From Shigella phage ESh26: a DNA stretch of 64,000 nt. The notes under the pieces are model-generated. The model did not search any database. It saw nothing but the letters and a program-made list of their open reading frames with translations, and was not told where the DNA came from. Shown here in pieces: positions 3,933 to 15,205 of the stretch; position 1 is the first letter of the stretch; each line of letters opens with the position of its first letter. The stretch is from sequence record ON528736, one strand, 5' to 3'. The translations under genes and the position numbers were made by a program.

Positions 3933-5027
3933 ATGGCAATTGTTAAAGAAATAACTGCTGATTTAATTAAAAAGTCCGGTGAGAAAATTTCAGCCGGACA
4001 GAGTACTAAATCAGAAGTAGTAACTAAAACATACACTGCCCAGTTTCCAACTGGGCGTGCTAGTGGTAATGACACTACAGGGGACTTCCAGGTAACAGAT
4101 CTATATAAGAATGGATTATTATTTACTGCATACAATATGTCATCTAGGGATTCTGGAAGTCTTAGATCGATGAGATCTAACTACTCTTCTTCATCTTCGA
4201 GTATTTTAAGTACAGCTAGAAACACTATTAGTAGTACAGTATCAAAACTATCAAATGGATTAATATCAAATAACAATTCAGGAACAATAAGTAAAGCTCC
4301 TGTCGCAAACATTCTTTTACCGAGATCTAAATCTGACGTTGATACGTCATCACATAGATTTAACGATGTTCAAGAAAGTCTTATCAGCAGAGGTGGAGGT
4401 ACTGCTACTGGTGTGTTAAGTAATATTGCTTCAACTGCAGTATTTGGGGCACTGGAAAGTATAACACAAGGTATAATGGCTGATAATAATGAACAGATTT
4501 ATACGACAGCCAGAAGTATGTATGGTGGTGCTGAGAATAGAACTAAAGTGTTTACATGGGATTTGACTCCACGTTCAACAGAAGATTTGATGGCTATTAT
4601 TAATATCTATCAATATTTTAACTATTTTTCTTATGGTGAAACGGGCAAATCTCAATATGCTGCTGAAATAAAGGGGTATTTAGATGATTGGTATCGTTCT
4701 ACGTTAATTGAACCTTTATCTCCGGAAGACGCAGCTAAAAATAAAACACTATTTGAGAAAATGACATCGAGTTTAACTAACGTTCTAGTAGTTTCAAACC
4801 CGACAATTTGGATGGTGAAAAACTTTGGTGCAACATCTAAGTTTGATGGAAAAACGGAAATATTTGGCCCATGTCAAATACAGAGCATCAGATTTGATAA
4901 AACACCTAATGGTAACTTTAACGGATTAGCTATTGCTCCAAACCTCCCTAGTACATTTACTCTTGAGATTACTATGAGAGAAATTATCACGTTAAATCGT
5001 GCTTCTTTATATGCGGGGACTTTTTAA
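3933..5027 (+). CDS. 48: Baseplate tail tube cap gp48
   Basis: 364 aa as in T4 gp48; synteny between 29 and 54. Confidence 0.85.
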   Translation: MAIVKEITADLIKKSGEKISAGQSTKSEVVTKTYTAQFPTGRASGNDTTGDFQVTDLYKNGLLFTAYNMSSRDSGSLRSMRSNYSSSSSSILSTARNTISSTVSKLSNGLISNNNSGTISKAPVANILLPRSKSDVDTSSHRFNDVQESLISRGGGTATGVLSNIASTAVFGALESITQGIMADNNEQIYTTARSMYGGAENRTKVFTWDLTPRSTEDLMAIINIYQYFNYFSYGETGKSQYAAEIKGYLDDWYRSTLIEPLSPEDAAKNKTLFEKMTSSLTNVLVVSNPTIWMVKNFGATSKFDGKTEIFGPCQIQSIRFDKTPNGNFNGLAIAPNLPSTFTLEITMREIITLNRASLYAGTF

Positions 5028-5992
5028 TGTATTCTTTAGAGGAATTTAATAATCAAGCAATAAACGCAGATTTCCAGCGTAATAATATGTTTAGCTGCGT
5101 TTTTGCGACAACTCCATCAACTAAAAGCTCTTCGTTGATAAGTTCAATTAGCAACTTTTCTTATAATAACTTGGGTCTAAATTCAGACTGGTTAGGATTG
5201 TCTCAAGGCGATATTAATCAGGGAATTACCACGCTAATTACTGCTGGCACACAAAAACTGATAAGAAAATCAGGGGTTAGTAAATATCTTATTGGTGCCA
5301 TGAGTCAACGTACAGTTCAAAGTTTATTGGGCTCATTTACAGTTGGTACATATTTAATTGACTTCTTTAATATGGCATATAACTCATCTGGGTTGATGAT
5401 ATATTCTGTAAAAATGCCAGAGAATAGATTATCCTATGAAACTGACTGGAACTATAATTCTCCTAATATTCGTATAACTGGGAGAGAATTAGACCCTTTG
5501 GTTATTTCATTTAGAATGGATTCAGAAGCTTGTAACTATCGTGCGATGCAAGACTGGGTTAACGCTGTTCAAGACCCAGTAACTGGATTGCGTGCTTTGC
5601 CACAAGATGTCGAGGCAGATATTCAGGTTAATCTTCATGCTCGTAATGGATTACCTCATACTGCGGTGATGTTCACCGGATGCATTCCAGTGTCAGTGAG
5701 CGCTCCTGAGTTATCATATGATGGAGATAACCAAATAACTACATTTGATGTTACTTTTGCGTATAGAGTCATGCAGGCTGGGTCGGTTGATAGACAGGCC
5801 GCGCTTGAGTGGCTTGAATCTGCTGCTATAAATGGCATTCAAAGCGTTCTCGGAAATAGTGGAGGTGTTACTGGATTATCTAATTCGCTTTCACGACTTA
5901 GTAGATTAGGGGGAACTGCTGGAAGCATTTCAAACATTAATACTATGACAGGAATTGTCAATTCGCAAAGTAAAATATTAGGAGCAATATAA
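5027..5992 (+). CDS. 54: Baseplate tail tube initiator gp54
   Basis: 321 aa (T4 gp54 about 320 aa); TAATG overlap with gene 48 stop. Confidence 0.85.
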   Translation: MYSLEEFNNQAINADFQRNNMFSCVFATTPSTKSSSLISSISNFSYNNLGLNSDWLGLSQGDINQGITTLITAGTQKLIRKSGVSKYLIGAMSQRTVQSLLGSFTVGTYLIDFFNMAYNSSGLMIYSVKMPENRLSYETDWNYNSPNIRITGRELDPLVISFRMDSEACNYRAMQDWVNAVQDPVTGLRALPQDVEADIQVNLHARNGLPHTAVMFTGCIPVSVSAPELSYDGDNQITTFDVTFAYRVMQAGSVDRQAALEWLESAAINGIQSVLGNSGGVTGLSNSLSRLSRLGGTAGSISNINTMTGIVNSQSKILGAI

Positions 5993-6375: not shown

Positions 6376-8429
6376 ATCTTGAACTTTTTAGACATTCCGT
6401 TGATGTTAACCAAAGAAGCCAAGATTTGAGAAACTTCGTTTTCCTCTTCTTTTGATTCTTCTACAAGGAATTGATTAAACCCAGCCATTGGACGAACTTC
6501 ACCAGTTTCCATTAGATGATCGCCATCATATACCGATTCTTCTAATTGTTCAGAAGGAGGAACGATTGTGCCTTCAATTAGATACTTGTTATAAGCAGTT
6601 TCTTTCATCATGTACGTGCTTACTTTATTAATCTTCAACAAAATTCCACGCGGTAGAATAACTTCAGCTTCTGATGGAAATCCCGATAAATGACCTGGAA
6701 CGATAACTTTGATTCGCTCAGCCCCTTTAATTACCATACCTACGCTAGTTTCAGCATCTTCATTCGCATAAGCAGAATGACTGCCCATATGCATTAAATC
6801 TTCAGCATCAACAGAACCTTCTCCTTCACCAGAAAATACTGCGCCGGAATCATCTAGAGCCATATAGTTTTTACCATGCTCACCGAAGATATTTGGTTTA
6901 AGCGATGTTGATACGAAGTTCTTGAAATAGAACATTTTATTTTCAATATTATGGCGTAAAGTTTTAAAAGTAACTTCTTGTCCACGATAAAGCGTAGTTC
7001 CTGGAGGAAGAACTGAACCTTTGGCAAAGGCAGAATCCAGCGTCTCGATGTGTTTAATAGCTCGTTCCATGTATTCTTCACGGGTAGAATCTGGTTTACC
7101 CAAGAGGAACGAGTTCATTTCAACATATGAATCTGCACAATAATCTTCAATTACATCAGACTCAGCTTGAGTCAGTCCTTTTGGAGTTACTTCGGTGCTT
7201 GCGTATTCATATGCCTGAGCAGCAGATTCATTAATCAATTTATAAATGCCATTCATGACAAATTGAATAATAGCTACCTTTTCGTCTGGTGTGGCTTTAG
7301 AACCTTTAACTAAATCATTGATAATTTTCTTAATAACATCAAAGCTATTAGAAATATTAATGTCAGCGAGATCGCTCAAAATTTTATCGGTTTTATAATC
7401 AAAAAATTCTTTATTCTTTAAATATTCTTGAGAACCTTGATGTGTTATATCGCTCTGCAGTCTGATAGACGGATCACGTAAACGCGCATGGGCCAATGCA
7501 ATATGATTTCGGAAGCTTTCTAGTTCATAATCGTTAGATTTAAAACGAGAAGCACTTCTCATACCACCGATAGCTCCTTTGCCGAAGTTTGAACCAATCT
7601 GAATAACACCAGAGTTCATTGGTCCTTCTGCTTTATATACCGGAACTTTAGATTCAAACTCTTGATATTTCTTGGCAGCGAAGCTATCACCCTGAAGCGA
7701 AGCATCGACAGTAGAATATTGAGCTTGTGCTGCCAATCGACGACTAATTTTAGTTTTCTGAATAACAGCTTGATCCGTGCGCTTATCATTTTCTAAAGCA
7801 ATAGAAGCAGCAACAGCAACAGCTTTAGGAACAGCATTACCTGTTTTAACATCTACATAAACATCACCAACCTTTGATTCAACTTTTGTGAATAACTCAG
7901 TTGAAATAGGAGGTACACCTGGAATGTCTTCTAAATTGGCATTTTTACGGTAAACCATAATATATGCATACTTTTTATCATAATCCCAGATTTCCTTTAA
8001 AAGAACATATCGACCTGCTCCTTTAGTACGTACTAAACGGTCAGCAATAACTTGCATTTGACGAGCTGCGCCATTTGTTTTACTTTTTAGTACGCGGAAT
8101 AAGCATGCATCAATTTTATACTGTTTCATTGTTTGAAGAGCAGTATCAAAAACGGCATTAATGACACCAATTGGATTTCCACCCAAGTTTTTAAGTTTAA
8201 CTAATGATAGTTTCTCATTAACACCTATCATTACGATATGCATCATTTTATCGCCTGGCTTAACGTTTTTATTTGTATCACCACCAGAGGTGTATGTACA
8301 AAATCTAAATCCAGGAAGCACACTTTCTTCGCCGGCTTGAATAGCAAAAATTTGAGGTATTTTATGCTTAGGATTTAAGTTAACAACCGGCGCCGAAGCG
8401 CCGTCAAATAATTCTGTAATAAGTTCCAT
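6372..8429 (-). CDS. Alt-like ADP-ribosyltransferase paralog (685 aa)
   Basis: N-terminal about 220 aa nearly identical to the adjacent Alt; C-terminal ART motifs YRGQ, FKNFVSTSL, EAEVILPRG; divergent centre. Confidence 0.8.
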   Translation of the reverse strand: MELITELFDGASAPVVNLNPKHKIPQIFAIQAGEESVLPGFRFCTYTSGGDTNKNVKPGDKMMHIVMIGVNEKLSLVKLKNLGGNPIGVINAVFDTALQTMKQYKIDACLFRVLKSKTNGAARQMQVIADRLVRTKGAGRYVLLKEIWDYDKKYAYIMVYRKNANLEDIPGVPPISTELFTKVESKVGDVYVDVKTGNAVPKAVAVAASIALENDKRTDQAVIQKTKISRRLAAQAQYSTVDASLQGDSFAAKKYQEFESKVPVYKAEGPMNSGVIQIGSNFGKGAIGGMRSASRFKSNDYELESFRNHIALAHARLRDPSIRLQSDITHQGSQEYLKNKEFFDYKTDKILSDLADINISNSFDVIKKIINDLVKGSKATPDEKVAIIQFVMNGIYKLINESAAQAYEYASTEVTPKGLTQAESDVIEDYCADSYVEMNSFLLGKPDSTREEYMERAIKHIETLDSAFAKGSVLPPGTTLYRGQEVTFKTLRHNIENKMFYFKNFVSTSLKPNIFGEHGKNYMALDDSGAVFSGEGEGSVDAEDLMHMGSHSAYANEDAETSVGMVIKGAERIKVIVPGHLSGFPSEAEVILPRGILLKINKVSTYMMKETAYNKYLIEGTIVPPSEQLEESVYDGDHLMETGEVRPMAGFNQFLVEESKEEENEVSQILASLVNINGMSKKFKM

Positions 8430-8432
8430 GAT

Positions 8433-10526
8433 TTATCCTTGAACGAACTTGTAAGGCATGTTTGTAATATCTATGCAAGACGCAATAATTCCAAGAGATG
8501 ATTCTACTTTTTGTTTAACATTTGATGAAACAAATGATGCAAAGTCAACTCTGTCTTCTATTTCAATATCACCTGTCATTGCAACTACTTCACCAGTTTC
8601 CATTAGACGGTCACCGTCATAAATTACTGATTCGGTGAGTTCTTCCGTAGTCATAACTTCAGCTTGAATGAGTTTTGTATTATTAGATGTTGTTCCGTCA
8701 TTATTAGAAGCATCAGTTATTTTATTAACTTTGACCATCAATCCGCGTGGTAGAATAACTTCAGCTTCTGTTGCTATTCCGAGACTTCCTGGATATACAA
8801 CATTAACTTTATGAGCTCCATCAATTGCCCATCCTATTTGAACTTTAACGTATTCAGGATTTTCTTTATACGCTCTTATTTCGTTTGGATTAATAGTTAT
8901 TCCTTCTTCATTTTTATCAACTGTTAATTCATTACGAGCTTCTGGTTCTAAAAGACCAATACCAGCATGTGTAATTCCAAAACGTCCAAAAATGATAGGA
9001 GTTAAAGAAGTAGATACAAAATTTCTGAAATAGAATACTTTATTTTTAACTAGTGCTTCGTATATAGGAGCAGTCATACTTTGAGCACGATAAACTGTAA
9101 TGCCTTCTGGTATACGGTCACCATTTTCAAAAGCTGAATCTAAGTTATTTATAGCAGATTCAATTTCTTTTTCACTCATTACATCATATCGTTCTGGATT
9201 GTAGCGTCCTAAAAGAAGATTATTGATGTCAGTATATCCTGAACCGCAATACTCTCTAATGCCGCGCTTTTGTGATGGAGTATATTTAGAACCATCACGG
9301 GCAATAGTAATATCAATCATTGGACCTGCACCAATTCCAGAAAAGCTATAAATCATTCGTTTGAGGAATTTAGTTTTTGCTGCGTTCCAGGAATTTTTAG
9401 TTATTTCTTCCCAGACTTCATCTGGCTGTCCTTTACGGGTTTTATTATGTTTATCAAGCCAATTATCTTTATATTCTTCAAAGAGTTGATTAACAGCTGC
9501 TGCGTATTTCTCCAAACATTTTATTGAAGTAGTTGGTTCATTTTTAATCGCATTAAGAATTACATCTTTAATCTTTTCAGAAACTTCATTAACCTCACTT
9601 TTTGAAAAGAATTTATAGTCATAATGAAGTTCATCTGCAGTTCCTTCAGCAATAATTTTTGCTGCCTTAGTTTTAGAAGCTAATGAATTAATTCCAAGCT
9701 TCATTTCTTCTGCTTCGGGAATTAAAGGAGCTGTAGCAGGTTTATTGAAATTAGCTGCGGTAGATTCATACTTCTGGAATAATTCACTTTCAAATCTAGA
9801 AGATTCCAATGACTGACTTTGCGCAATTGCTCTACGGGAAATTTTAACTTTAACGATTACAGCTTGATCAGAACGTTTATCGTTTTCTTGCGCAATAGAT
9901 GCTGCAATTGCCTCATTTTTAGTTACTTGAGCTCCGGTATCTTTATTGATATAAACATCACCGACCTTCGATTCAACTTTAGTAAAGAGCTCAGTACTAA
10001 TTTCCGGAACTCCTGGAATGTCTTCTAGTGATACATTTTTGCGATGTATAAGAATATATGCATACTTTTTATCGTAATCCCAGAGTTCCTTAAGAAGGAC
10101 GTATCTGCCACCTGAACGACTACGGATAAGTCTATCAGCAATAAGTTGAATTTGACGAGCTTGACCAGCAGTTTTAGACTTAAGAATACGGAGCATGCAG
10201 GCATCAATTTTATACTGACGCATTGTTTGCATTGCAACAGTAAAAACTGAATTGATGTAATTAATTGGGCTTGGACCGAGACCTTTTAATTTAGCAATTG
10301 AACCTTTAGCAGTTAATGTAAAAGGAACAATATGCATCATTTTATCGCCCATCTTTAAATCGCGATTAGTATCACCTCCAGATGTATAAGTACATAAACG
10401 AAAACCTGGTTGTTCAATTGCGTCATCAACATGAACTGAAAAAATTTGCGGTATTTTCTTCTTTGGATTTAAGTTTGTAATCGGAAGAGTAGTATCTTCG
10501 TCAAATAATTCTGTAATGAGTTCCAT
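8433..10526 (-). CDS. alt: RNA polymerase ADP-ribosyltransferase Alt (packaged, injected)
   Basis: About 697 aa; N-terminus MELITELFDEDTTLPITNL... and ART motifs YRAQ, FRNFVSTSL, ATEAEVILPRG as recalled for T4 Alt; located between 54 and 30. Confidence 0.85.
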   Translation of the reverse strand: MELITELFDEDTTLPITNLNPKKKIPQIFSVHVDDAIEQPGFRLCTYTSGGDTNRDLKMGDKMMHIVPFTLTAKGSIAKLKGLGPSPINYINSVFTVAMQTMRQYKIDACMLRILKSKTAGQARQIQLIADRLIRSRSGGRYVLLKELWDYDKKYAYILIHRKNVSLEDIPGVPEISTELFTKVESKVGDVYINKDTGAQVTKNEAIAASIAQENDKRSDQAVIVKVKISRRAIAQSQSLESSRFESELFQKYESTAANFNKPATAPLIPEAEEMKLGINSLASKTKAAKIIAEGTADELHYDYKFFSKSEVNEVSEKIKDVILNAIKNEPTTSIKCLEKYAAAVNQLFEEYKDNWLDKHNKTRKGQPDEVWEEITKNSWNAAKTKFLKRMIYSFSGIGAGPMIDITIARDGSKYTPSQKRGIREYCGSGYTDINNLLLGRYNPERYDVMSEKEIESAINNLDSAFENGDRIPEGITVYRAQSMTAPIYEALVKNKVFYFRNFVSTSLTPIIFGRFGITHAGIGLLEPEARNELTVDKNEEGITINPNEIRAYKENPEYVKVQIGWAIDGAHKVNVVYPGSLGIATEAEVILPRGLMVKVNKITDASNNDGTTSNNTKLIQAEVMTTEELTESVIYDGDRLMETGEVVAMTGDIEIEDRVDFASFVSSNVKQKVESSLGIIASCIDITNMPYKFVQG

Positions 10527-10578
10527 CATATCCTCTCTAGTGTTTATTCTATTTATAAAATTAAAGGCCCGAAGGCCT

Positions 10579-10767
10579 TTAATAATCTATTGGTAAGAGA
10601 GTACGGTATATTTCAAACTTTGGACCTTTTTCATAGGCATCAAATGTTTCTGCGAATTTATTATAAGCATATGCATCTATAAATTCAATCATAATTTGTG
10701 ATACAGAAGTAGAAACATCTCCACCTTCTTTTTGAGCCACGACAATTGTTTCTAAGTAAGCTTTCAT
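10579..10767 (-). CDS. Hypothetical small protein (62 aa)
   Basis: ORF between ligase and alt; followed by a GGCC-UUCG-GGCC hairpin at about 10563-10581. Confidence 0.4.
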   Translation of the reverse strand: MKAYLETIVVAQKEGGDVSTSVSQIMIEFIDAYAYNKFAETFDAYEKGPKFEIYRTLLPIDY

Positions 10768-12227
10768 AGACCAGTTACCTCATGAAAATCACCAAATACA
10801 TCCTCGAATGTATTAGCTTTAGTTTTATCTTCACGTAAACGAATCGCAATCGGAAGAAATAATTTAACGTAATCAGTGCGGCCGTCAGATTTTAACCAAC
10901 CATTGCATTCGCACTCTAGAATTTTTCCAATATAATAATTTTGGTTTTCCATAATCCGAGTACGGTCAAGTTCATGCGATTTTACACCGGCTTTATCTTT
11001 TAAGCCTGAACCAGCATTTACTTTAATTTTTCCACATTCTGATTCAAGAATAAATCCACCAGCTTTAGTAGGGTCTTTACGGTGAGGATAAATTCCTACA
11101 ATTTTTAAATCAACATCAATTACTTCTTTAAATTTATAAAGATTTTTTGAACGAGCATTTTCCCACAATCCATCGGTATTTTTGAGAATAATACCTTCAA
11201 GACCTTGGTCAATATACTTTTTATAAATTACCTTAGCTTCATCTAGGTTATTTACTACTTGGTTTTCAATTAAAATTACTTTATCATATCCTGATGTCAT
11301 TTGTTCTAGTTTAGAAAAACGTACATCATATTTTAAACGAAACGCCGGAAGACCATATATTTCTACCAACGGAACATAATCCCAGACCTGAAACTTCATG
11401 CATTTGGCTTCTTTTTCTGAAATAGTTCCTTTTAAGGATTTATTGGCGATTCCATTAGAAGCAGTACGAGATTCCGCTACTTCGGCGAATTCTTTAGCTT
11501 TACTAATTTCAGGATAAGCATCAAAAAGAAAATCTAGGCCTTCTGGTTCCTTTTTAACTTGCTCATGGTATACCAATTCGCCATCGATTAACACACCTTC
11601 TGGATGAATCTGGCGGGCTTCAGCAGTCATTTTGATTAACTCTTCCTTAAGAAGATCTAATCCTAGATATTCATTACCAGCTCGTGATAAAAGACGAACA
11701 TCATCTAATTCATCACCTCGGACTTCAGCAAAACACCGAGCTCCATCTGCTTTTAACTGCGCAAAGGCTGGAAACTTGATATTTTTACTAATGCCTTTTT
11801 CATCATAAGAACTTGCCAACATTTGAGGTTGTTCAGGAATTAAACCTGGCCAAACTTTGTTTGCAATAGATACTGAAGCACCGCATTCAAGGTCTCGCAT
11901 CATCACTCGACGCAAAACTTCAACATCATCCTTTTTACCATCAGTGATATATCCAGTTAATTCCTCAATTGCAGCATTTCCAGTCAATTTCCGAGTAGCT
12001 AACGTGAATTCAATGAAGTCAAGCATATCGGTAATAGTCAGCATTCCAAAACTCTGGGTAGCAATACCAGGCTTAGGCCATTTCTTGATATAATACTGTA
12101 ACCCACGAGAATAAGTCAGACGATATACTCGTTTAAGCAATTCATTATCTTTATTCTTTTCAAGAATTGCTTGCTTCTGCTTAGTTGATCCAATAGATGC
12201 TATTTCATTCAGAATTTTAAGAATCAT
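10764..12227 (-). CDS. 30: ATP-dependent DNA ligase gp30
   Basis: 487 aa; adenylation motif KADGAR; sequence matches T4 DNA ligase as recalled. Confidence 0.95.
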   Translation of the reverse strand: MILKILNEIASIGSTKQKQAILEKNKDNELLKRVYRLTYSRGLQYYIKKWPKPGIATQSFGMLTITDMLDFIEFTLATRKLTGNAAIEELTGYITDGKKDDVEVLRRVMMRDLECGASVSIANKVWPGLIPEQPQMLASSYDEKGISKNIKFPAFAQLKADGARCFAEVRGDELDDVRLLSRAGNEYLGLDLLKEELIKMTAEARQIHPEGVLIDGELVYHEQVKKEPEGLDFLFDAYPEISKAKEFAEVAESRTASNGIANKSLKGTISEKEAKCMKFQVWDYVPLVEIYGLPAFRLKYDVRFSKLEQMTSGYDKVILIENQVVNNLDEAKVIYKKYIDQGLEGIILKNTDGLWENARSKNLYKFKEVIDVDLKIVGIYPHRKDPTKAGGFILESECGKIKVNAGSGLKDKAGVKSHELDRTRIMENQNYYIGKILECECNGWLKSDGRTDYVKLFLPIAIRLREDKTKANTFEDVFGDFHEVTGL

Positions 12228-12493
12228 TGTTCATCCTTCAGAGTTTGATTTACAGCTCTATTATAAATCAATTCATCATTAAGCTCAGGCAAAGACTTAT
12301 GATATGTAGTTCTAACTTTATTTCCTTGCATCCAGTGCTTGACGTAAATGAAACCTTGCTCTACACATTTTTTAAAAATTCGTTCGTCTTTTTGAGCTCG
12401 GAATTCTGGATTGCATCTAAAAAATTGATTCACGTGACCGTAATCGCGTGTAGTATTACCTTCATTTTCATAAATAGTGTGAACGACAAACAT
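12224..12493 (-). CDS. Hypothetical protein (30.1-like, 89 aa)
   Basis: Coupled to ligase and the downstream ORF by overlapping start/stop codons. Confidence 0.5.
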   Translation of the reverse strand: MFVVHTIYENEGNTTRDYGHVNQFFRCNPEFRAQKDERIFKKCVEQGFIYVKHWMQGNKVRTTYHKSLPELNDELIYNRAVNQTLKDEQ

Positions 12494-13332
12494 TAGAATG
12501 CTCCTTGGAAAATATTATCACCACAAGTAGGTCTATTATACAAATACTCTATGCCACCAGGTTTAATATAGTTCCATGTCTGAAACGGATGTGTCTGATA
12601 TGGATGATATAGATGATTATAAGGATTAAATCCAGGCGTTCTCCAGGTAGTGTTCCAACGAAAAGAATCGTTTTTAACCATCTTCTCAATTAAATCTTTT
12701 ATAGCTTTTTCACTATCAAAACTTTCTTTATTTTCCTTTGGTGAAAAAAGCTTATTTTCTATATCATTCCATGTATAAACTCGCTGAGCAGTTTTTGGAA
12801 TATTGTCACGCTCTCCTCGAGCCATCCAATAAACAGGAACATTTAATATTTCACTCGCATGATCGCAGTGATGAGCGAGATCGTCAATATAACAAATTAC
12901 GTTATATTTCTCTTTTGCCTTTTTGAATAACTCTTCTTTTGAAGAATCATGACCACACATCATTACTTCTGAGAAGGCACCAGGAAAAAGAGCATTCAAA
13001 TTAAATTGACGATTCAACAGAGCGTCAATAGAATCACCCAATGCTGTAACAGCTACAAAATTATAATCTTCTTTTAATTTGTTAATTACACACAATGCAT
13101 CTTTATATGGAGACAAGTAACGAATAAAATCTGATCGATTGTATTTTTCAATTAACTTGACACCAAGTTCTTCATCGCATTTAAATAGTTTACCTGGAGA
13201 AATAAATTTCTCATCTTGGATCATTTTTAAAATATGTTCTAATGGAAGATTATATTTCTGAGCAAAATAAGGAAGACCTGATTGCCAGCTTAAACATACT
13301 CCATCAATATCAGTTAAAATAGTAGGCTTCAT
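12493..13332 (-). CDS. HAD-superfamily hydrolase-like protein (30.2-like)
   Basis: 279 aa; N-terminal DIDGV (HAD motif I, DxDxV) and a later YIDD motif. Confidence 0.6.
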   Translation of the reverse strand: MKPTILTDIDGVCLSWQSGLPYFAQKYNLPLEHILKMIQDEKFISPGKLFKCDEELGVKLIEKYNRSDFIRYLSPYKDALCVINKLKEDYNFVAVTALGDSIDALLNRQFNLNALFPGAFSEVMMCGHDSSKEELFKKAKEKYNVICYIDDLAHHCDHASEILNVPVYWMARGERDNIPKTAQRVYTWNDIENKLFSPKENKESFDSEKAIKDLIEKMVKNDSFRWNTTWRTPGFNPYNHLYHPYQTHPFQTWNYIKPGGIEYLYNRPTCGDNIFQGAF

Positions 13333-13787
13333 AGAGAGTCTCTTAATAGGTTTAACACATCAATAAATTCAGCTTCGGTTAGTATTGTATCATCTTTTGT
13401 TAGACCACTAGCCATGCTGTGCTTCAAAACTTTTCCTTTCGAGGCTTGTAATGCATCACGAAAGCCCCTGTTTTGGATCGCTGCTTCAAAATATGCATTT
13501 GTGTATAATTCTTTCCACGCTGGGGAGTATCTTGAAAACGGAACTCCAAGCCAGAAGAGGGTCCCACGGTCCTGAGCTCTAGCATAAGACCTTCCAGCTT
13601 GTTGGGCGGCAAGCCCGGATAACCCAAATATACGACGTTGCTGTTCAACATTTTTCACCTTACACCCTTGGAGGAATCCTTCGAGACCTCCAAATTGGAT
13701 ACCATCCATAACAAAAGGCCATTGGGCGAAATTACTTAATGCGCATGATGGCCATTTAAAATTGCTTCTTATCTCTAGCTCAGACAT
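13329..13787 (-). CDS. YbiA/NADAR-like protein (30.3-like)
   Basis: 152 aa; LSNF...W...GLEGF pattern typical of DUF1768/NADAR proteins; position downstream of ligase as for T4 30.3. Confidence 0.55.
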   Translation of the reverse strand: MSELEIRSNFKWPSCALSNFAQWPFVMDGIQFGGLEGFLQGCKVKNVEQQRRIFGLSGLAAQQAGRSYARAQDRGTLFWLGVPFSRYSPAWKELYTNAYFEAAIQNRGFRDALQASKGKVLKHSMASGLTKDDTILTEAEFIDVLNLLRDSL

Positions 13788-13995
13788 CTTTAATACTTAT
13801 AATTTCAACATCAGCCCAATGACCGTAACCAGGTAAACGGTCTTCAATAGATAATCCACCATCATATTTAAGCATTTTAATTGTCATAATATATGGCTCT
13901 AAATGGTCTTCAGTGAGCGGAGAGACATCAGTCACGCGATAAGTAACTTCAACCATTTCCGTACCTAATAATTTCTGAATTAATTTCTTAAACAT
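13780..13995 (-). CDS. Hypothetical protein (71 aa)
   Basis: ORF with overlapping stop/start to neighbours. Confidence 0.45.
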   Translation of the reverse strand: MFKKLIQKLLGTEMVEVTYRVTDVSPLTEDHLEPYIMTIKMLKYDGGLSIEDRLPGYGHWADVEIISIKDV

Positions 13996-13999
13996 TTTA

Positions 14000-14287
14000 T
14001 TAGAACCTCATCTGAAAGCCATGCGATTTAACATTACCGCCGCCAATATCAGAAATATTAATTTCACGCGCAATTGAAGGGTCAATGTCAATTTCACGAT
14101 TGAGTTTAGTGATAGCTAAAGTATCGCGACCATTTACAGTACGGAACTCTAAAGGGCAGACTACGTTAACGTAGTTTTTAATCGATTCGCTGGTAGGTTG
14201 CAAATGAGCAGGAAGGTCTTTAGGCGCCTTTGAGAAAACCACTTCGCAGAAATTTTTGCGGGTATCAAAATAAGTAGTCATAAACAT
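14000..14287 (-). CDS. Hypothetical protein (95 aa)
   Basis: ORF; preceded by a UUCG-type hairpin at about 14303-14320. Confidence 0.5.
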   Translation of the reverse strand: MFMTTYFDTRKNFCEVVFSKAPKDLPAHLQPTSESIKNYVNVVCPLEFRTVNGRDTLAITKLNREIDIDPSIAREINISDIGGGNVKSHGFQMRF

Positions 14288-14328
14288 AGTATTTTCCTCA
14301 GTAAGGGGCCGAAGCCCCTCATTTTATT

Positions 14329-15152: not shown

Positions 15153-15205
15153 AACTTTGTGCAATCTTTGGAAAATAAAAAAGGACTCCCGAAGGAGTCC
15201 TCAAC

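Follow-up and report, generated by a model that had tools for sequence, protein, structure and literature searches.

The closest described system is the adfN gene of the T-even phages. The resistance of these phages to DarTG1 has been mapped to gene 30.3, which was renamed adfN, for anti-DarT factor NADAR (Johannesman, Carlson, LeRoux; PMC11257639). Deletion of adfN in T4 or T2 reduces plating on DarTG1 by about four logs, and the effect of T4 AdfN is abolished by E36A and by K43A (PMC11257639). Phage RB69 is naturally sensitive to DarTG1 because a 1-nt insertion shortens its gp30.3 by 15 residues, and it is restored by ectopic AdfN (PMC11257639). In vitro the purified protein on its own strips ADP-ribose from DarT1-modified DNA, and AdfN is without effect on DarTG2, which modifies thymidine (PMC11257639). 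In a HIDEN-SEQ transposon screen of T4 adfN was dispensable on Escherichia coli K-12 and became essential when DarTG1 was present (10.1101/2025.11.20.689424).

Independent biochemical work has shown that T4 gp30.3 hydrolyses guanosine-ADPr and not thymidine-ADPr (PMC11125620). All NADARs tested in a 2026 study, that of T4 included, removed G-ADPr, and the summary table of this study lists the phage NADAR as reversing G-ADPr and not cytidine-ADPr (PMC12945103). That T4-like phages have NADAR genes in their early gene set had already been noted in an earlier computational survey (PMC9503650). In uninfected cells T4 gp30.3 gave no rescue from DarT1 toxicity (PMC11125620) and phages outside the T-even group were only partly protected by T4 AdfN (PMC11257639), so that a picture in which the enzyme alone acts on any DNA is incomplete. 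The T4 NADAR construct is described in Methods 4.2 of PMC11125620 as "gp30.3; residues 1-208", as against a gene product of 152 aa in T4 and in the phage analysed here; a slip in typing or the counting of vector residues may explain the number.

The adfN locus of phage ESh26

The window, by which we mean the whole stretch of 64,000 nucleotides from Shigella phage ESh26 (ON528736), comes, as judged from its sequence, from a T4-like phage (Tequatrovirus). Over the 2 kb around adfN the sequence shares 96-97.6% identity with many T4-like phages of Escherichia and Shigella, and the gene order of T4 is kept, with alt, alt.1, 30 (DNA ligase), 30.1, 30.2, 30.3, 30.4, 30.6, 30.7 and onward all on the minus strand. 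At 13329-13787 we find, as the preliminary description of this DNA had it, a gene for a 152-aa protein; its open reading frame lies on the minus strand and runs from an ATG to a stop. Its start overlaps the stop codon of gene 30.4 (13780-13995, minus strand) by 8 nt, and its stop overlaps the start of gene 30.2 (12493-13332, minus strand) by 4 nt in the sequence ATGA. The ATP-dependent DNA ligase of gene 30 (10764-12227, minus strand; PF01068, E 3e-32) shows 98.8% identity with that of T4 in a tblastn comparison. The gene had been placed downstream of this ligase; the proximity is right and the direction is not, since all genes lie on the minus strand and adfN is therefore transcribed before the ligase gene (30.4 > 30.3 > 30.2 > 30.1 > 30).

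Immediately upstream of adfN the sequence departs from T4. Gene 30.5, known from T4, is absent (13780-14287, minus strand), gene 30.6 (14000-14287, minus strand) comes directly after 30.4, and gp30.4 is only 50% identical to its T4 counterpart, compared with 96-98% for the neighbouring products. By its sequence the 30.4 region is a small hypervariable patch. We also scanned the region from 10.5 to 16.3 kb for promoter and terminator consensus sequences and obtained 22 promoter-like sites compared with 20.6 in shuffled sequence and 4 terminator-like sites compared with 2.8. As these counts are no higher than in shuffled sequence, the consensus scan is uninformative on the transcription units. 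The intergenic regions of T4 typically contain stable UUCG tetraloop hairpins, and a GC-rich hairpin of this type, GGGGC-UUCG-GCCCC in the minus-strand RNA, is found at 14304-14319 between 30.7 and 30.6. As the coding strand carries no U-tract there, this hairpin is unlikely to terminate transcription of these genes. A second GC-rich hairpin with a UUCG loop in the minus-strand RNA, GAGGACUCC-UUCG-GGAGUCCUU at 15181-15202 near 15.2 kb, is followed by a U-run.

The virion-packaged ADP-ribosyltransferase Alt is predicted to be encoded at 8433-10529 on the minus strand (PF03496, E 1.6e-37), syntenic with T4 alt, so that this phage does itself encode an ADP-ribosyltransferase, as the preliminary description assumed. 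The Alt reading frame comprises 698 aa in the window and 682 aa (2,049 nt) in T4. Given this enzyme, AdfN might serve the phage's own protection by undoing collateral ADP-ribosylation of nucleic acids caused by Alt, ModA and ModB, an idea also raised in the preliminary description, and alt does lie 3 kb from adfN on the same strand. However, to our knowledge Alt, ModA and ModB modify proteins and not DNA guanines. Moreover, T4 lacking adfN grows normally on hosts without DarTG1, the gene being dispensable on E. coli K-12 and essential only in the presence of DarTG1 (PMC11257639, 10.1101/2025.11.20.689424). We therefore find the self-protection idea unsupported and regard it as extremely improbable.

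The 152-aa protein matches the Pfam family PF08010, "Bacteriophage protein GP30.3" (Phage_30_3), with 233.5 bits and an E value of 7.8e-70, far above the curated cut-off of 36 bits and over the complete model (positions 1-138 of 138). It has the same length as T4 gp30.3/AdfN and is identical to it at 149 of 152 positions (98%), the differences relative to T4 being K11R, R107K and M125I; as far as the sequence tells, all three are conservative and none falls on a catalytic position. The counterpart in Escherichia phage EO1 is 100% identical. By tblastn, homologues of gp30.3 are found in 1,510 phage records, mainly Straboviridae with the hosts Escherichia, Klebsiella, Shigella, Aeromonas, Acinetobacter and Vibrio, and nearly all of these records label the product "hypothetical protein". 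Codon differences in adfN are mostly synonymous (synonymous to non-synonymous 10:0 against EO1, 10:3 against T4 and 46:22 against WG01), and the frame is under purifying selection.

The product of the window allele is full length, ending in ...EAEFIDVLNLLRDSL, with a C-terminal helix predicted at residues 138-151. In RB69 the reading frame (8268-8681 of its stretch) ends after residue 137 and this helix is lacking. Shortened or fragmented gp30.3 reading frames are also found in SV76 (109 aa), vB_Eco_NR1 (107 aa), UGJNEcP4 (91 aa) and RPN226 (86 aa). Together with the 137-aa frame of RB69, whose truncation alone is verified, they suggest either recurrent loss of adfN or errors of sequencing or annotation.

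The T4 annotation contains 30.3', an internal translation product in another frame of adfN. In the window this frame spans 75 codons (13424-13651, minus strand); it is also open in T4, EO1 and WG01, with the ATG shifted by one codon in WG01, and is closed after 34 codons in RB69. Within the 30.3' stretch the synonymous and non-synonymous differences between phages amount to 0:5, 0:9 and 7:30 when read in the 30.3' frame and to 4:1, 8:0 and 22:12 when read in the AdfN frame. A real overlapping gene is unlikely, as nearly all changes in its frame are non-synonymous and the frame is closed in RB69. Thus 30.3' is probably not a protein under selection and looks more like a side effect of the adfN frame.

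Assignment of AdfN to the NADAR family

The preliminary description had assigned the protein to the YbiA/DUF1768 (NADAR) family on account of an LSNF...W...E pattern. This pattern is indeed present, LSNF being residues 17-20, followed by W23 and E36. Nevertheless, single-sequence searches would not have led to this family. A Pfam scan of the window protein with E values up to 10 gave PF08010 and a chance match to DUF724, and no match to the NADAR family PF08719; phmmer with the single protein against the PDB sequences returned nothing relevant; NCBIfam had no match for AdfN or gp30.2; and the PHROGs matched by the two proteins are families of unknown function. Pfam holds gp30.3 as a family separate from PF08719. 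As there is no direct match to PF08719 or to a PDB sequence, the case for membership is built on profiles, transitive links and structure.

For the profile analysis we used 51 full-length members of the gp30.3 family from a large protein database. Seven of the 51 match PF08719, with a best E value of 1.5e-7, and several members are labelled YbiA/DUF1768 by JGI. When the family profile was compared with the PDB sequences the best match was E. coli YbiA (2b3w, E 0.001), and in this alignment the SNF...E...Q..K of the gp30.3 family pairs with the same motif of YbiA. An AlphaFold2 model of AdfN calculated from the alignment reached a pLDDT of 93.7 and a pTM of 0.89 and shows the alpha+beta NADAR fold. 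The three best Foldseek matches of this model in the PDB are YbiA (2b3w), the Geobacter lovleyi NADAR (8bat) and the Phytophthora NADAR-ADP-ribose complex (8bau), all with probabilities of 0.99-1.00, whereas the other matches have probabilities of at most 0.07; the E value is below 0.001 for 2b3w only.

The residues E36, K43 and H123 are invariant in all 51 sequences, down to 35% identity. E36 and K43 fit the N-terminal E-x3-Q-x2-K motif of the NADARs, which contacts ADP-ribose, and H123 is the final residue of the last predicted strand (120-123). At this last strand the gp30.3 subfamily has a histidine, the YbiA-type NADARs a glutamate and the DarG1-type NADARs an aspartate (PMC11125620). Family profile, model, structural matches and invariant residues together support the conclusion that the 152-aa protein belongs to the phage gp30.3 subfamily of NADAR-fold enzymes and has kept the predicted catalytic residues, and in this respect the earlier family assignment is borne out. 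That assignment was to be given up if catalytic residues were lost or if significant similarity to NADARs was missing. E36, K43 and H123 are all present; the similarity is missing in the plain Pfam and phmmer searches, which are misleading here, and is found with profiles and structure.

Kinship with YbiA raises the question whether AdfN is mainly an enzyme of small molecules, acting either on soluble immune signals derived from ADP-ribose or, as E. coli YbiA does, on intermediates of the riboflavin pathway. NADARs of the YbiA type are N-glycosidases on riboflavin intermediates, and the viral survey suggested soluble ADPr derivatives as substrates of the phage NADARs (PMC9503650). However, genetics and biochemistry directly show guanine-ADPr in DNA to be the substrate, and the last-strand glutamate of the YbiA family is a histidine in the gp30.3 subfamily. 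We consider a main role on small molecules highly improbable.

The neighbouring gene 30.2 and a possible partnership

The product of gene 30.2 (279 aa, beginning MKPTILTDIDGV) is 96% identical to T4 gp30.2. When 42 homologues are aligned, about 195 aa stand out as a conserved core beside a variable tail, and the AlphaFold2 model has pLDDT values above 90 at residues 1-190 and below 50 at 246-279; accordingly, the C-terminal tail of about 80 aa is predicted to be disordered and varies between lineages. All four HAD motifs are present, namely D8-x-D10-G11, T96, K132 and D150-D151; D8, D10 and K132 are invariant, and T96, D150 and D151 are kept in at least 90% of the 42 homologues. With Foldseek the model had 99 PDB matches at E values up to 0.001, and the best 50 of the 99 are HAD-fold proteins or designs based on such proteins. 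First among them is the cytosolic 5'(3')-deoxyribonucleotidase of the mouse (2jao, E 3.4e-8); further deoxyribonucleotidases, haloacid dehalogenases and HAD phosphatases come after it. The profile of the gp30.2 family also matches 2jao best among the PDB sequences, although weakly (E 0.057). Pfam and NCBIfam gave no match for gp30.2, including no match to a curated HAD or NT5C model. Among the PHROGs it belongs to PHROG 420 (unknown function) and has a weak match to a polynucleotide kinase PHROG (E 0.0023). A literature search under "gp30.2" found nothing. The adjacent 279-aa protein had been described as HAD-like on the basis of a DIDGV motif and as possibly acting on nucleotides. Fold and motifs bear out the first point, and the whole wording is a fair description of what appears to be, at the N-terminus, a phosphatase domain of the HAD superfamily that is about 200 aa long and resembles deoxyribonucleotidases.

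Since the action of AdfN in uninfected cells and outside the T-even group falls short, we considered whether AdfN needs a phage partner and whether this partner is the translationally coupled gp30.2, a candidate HAD phosphatase. Such a partner might act on the ADP-ribose set free, on a phosphorylated intermediate, on the DNA end or on the nucleotide pool. The ATGA overlap found in the window speaks for this idea, and the same 4-nt coordinate overlap exists in T4 and WG01. Even Acinetobacter phage Konradin, distant as it is, has the two genes side by side, and their homologues occur in similar numbers of phage records (1,510 for gp30.3 and 1,439 for gp30.2) with a nearly equal distribution of hosts. 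On the other hand, purified AdfN is active alone in vitro (PMC11257639, PMC11125620), the Karamvirus phages KaAlpha and PS49 have no gp30.2 homologue within 5 kb of their AdfN homologue, and general synteny accounts for most of the adjacency in T4-like genomes. Moreover, the authors of the genetic study prefer hydroxymethylcytosine DNA as the cause of the T-even specificity, a second phage factor being still possible in their account (PMC11257639). A need of AdfN for gp30.2 as its partner is thus quite improbable, and slightly less probable still is that gp30.2 is the missing phage factor that accounts for full AdfN action in T-even infection only, in which case the two enzymes would form a module for DNA de-ADP-ribosylation and clean-up. 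On the whole we regard a functional partnership of AdfN and gp30.2 as very improbable.

An obligate linkage of adfN and 30.2 can be rejected, as the two genes are apart in the Karamvirus phages. In Klebsiella phage KaAlpha and Aeromonas phage PS49 the AdfN homologue (43% identity) is located inside a tRNA cluster (5001-5450 of each stretch), away from 30.2 and the ligase gene, so that the gene has moved within Straboviridae genomes. Konradin carries an annotated nudE gene for a putative ADP-ribose pyrophosphatase about 2.5 kb upstream of gp30.3-gp30.2-ligase on the same strand (1924-2448 of its stretch); it is possible that the nudE product consumes ADP-ribose released by the NADAR.

Function of the window allele and comparison with known systems

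We conclude that the gene is very probably the Tequatrovirus adfN (T4 gene 30.3) and that its product, a phage-type NADAR, acts as a DNA guanine ADP-ribosylglycohydrolase directed against DarTG1. Sequence comparisons and the structural model establish the identity and orthology of the gene, the predicted NADAR fold, the intact E36, K43 and H123, the complete C-terminus and purifying selection. The enzymatic activity and the anti-DarTG1 phenotype are taken from the experiments on the 98% identical T4 protein, and we infer that the window allele acts like T4 AdfN, including resistance to DarTG1 and hydrolysis of G-N2-ADPr. The host toxin DarT1 would ADP-ribosylate guanines of the replicating phage DNA and thereby block replication. 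AdfN would hydrolyse the N-glycosidic bond between ADP-ribose and guanine, unmodified DNA would be regained and phage replication could proceed. AdfN would thus be a minimal single-domain NADAR, an "orphan antitoxin" of the phage which mimics the host's own DarG1. The proposal of an anti-DarTG counter-defence was correct in view of the 98% identity to T4 AdfN, for which this role is experimentally proven (PMC11257639, PMC11125620, 10.1101/2025.11.20.689424).

The anti-DarTG function of the gene is already known, having been published in 2024 for the T4 orthologue. The discovery value of our result is accordingly small: phage NADARs had been recognised computationally, hydrolysis of G-ADPr was shown in 2024 and the counter-defence of T4 against DarTG1 in 2024-2025. 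There is a value for annotation, as a standard Pfam scan yields "Phage_30_3" without a functional name. In addition, an intact adfN predicts that a phage plates on E. coli carrying DarTG1, which is relevant to the choice of therapy phages.

As in T4, the gene for AdfN (PF08010) has 30.4 and 30.2 as its neighbours and precedes the ligase gene, and E36, K43, H123 and the C-terminal helix are common to both orthologues. The differences are the three conservative substitutions and, next to the gene, the absence of 30.5 and the 50% identical gp30.4 in the window. DarG1, the NADAR antitoxin of DarTG1 (Geobacter/Trichlorobacter lovleyi, 8bat), differs in several respects. The adfN gene has no toxin gene to accompany it, and the N-terminal extension of DarG1 is missing from AdfN. 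In its last strand AdfN has a histidine where DarG1 has an aspartate, and, unlike DarG1, it fails to neutralise DarT1 in uninfected cells. E. coli YbiA and the Phytophthora nicotianae NADAR (PF08719; 2b3w, 8bau) share just 18-20% identity with AdfN, their last-strand glutamate is replaced by histidine in AdfN and their biological role is another one. For gp30.2 the comparison is with the 5'(3')-deoxyribonucleotidases cdN and mdN (2jao, 2i7d, 1q92). As in these enzymes, a Rossmann-like HAD core with a helical cap after motif I is predicted for gp30.2, and the DxDG nucleophile motif, the threonine, the lysine and the DD pair are shared, whereas the sequence identity is 14-18% and gp30.2 has in addition the disordered variable tail of about 80 aa.
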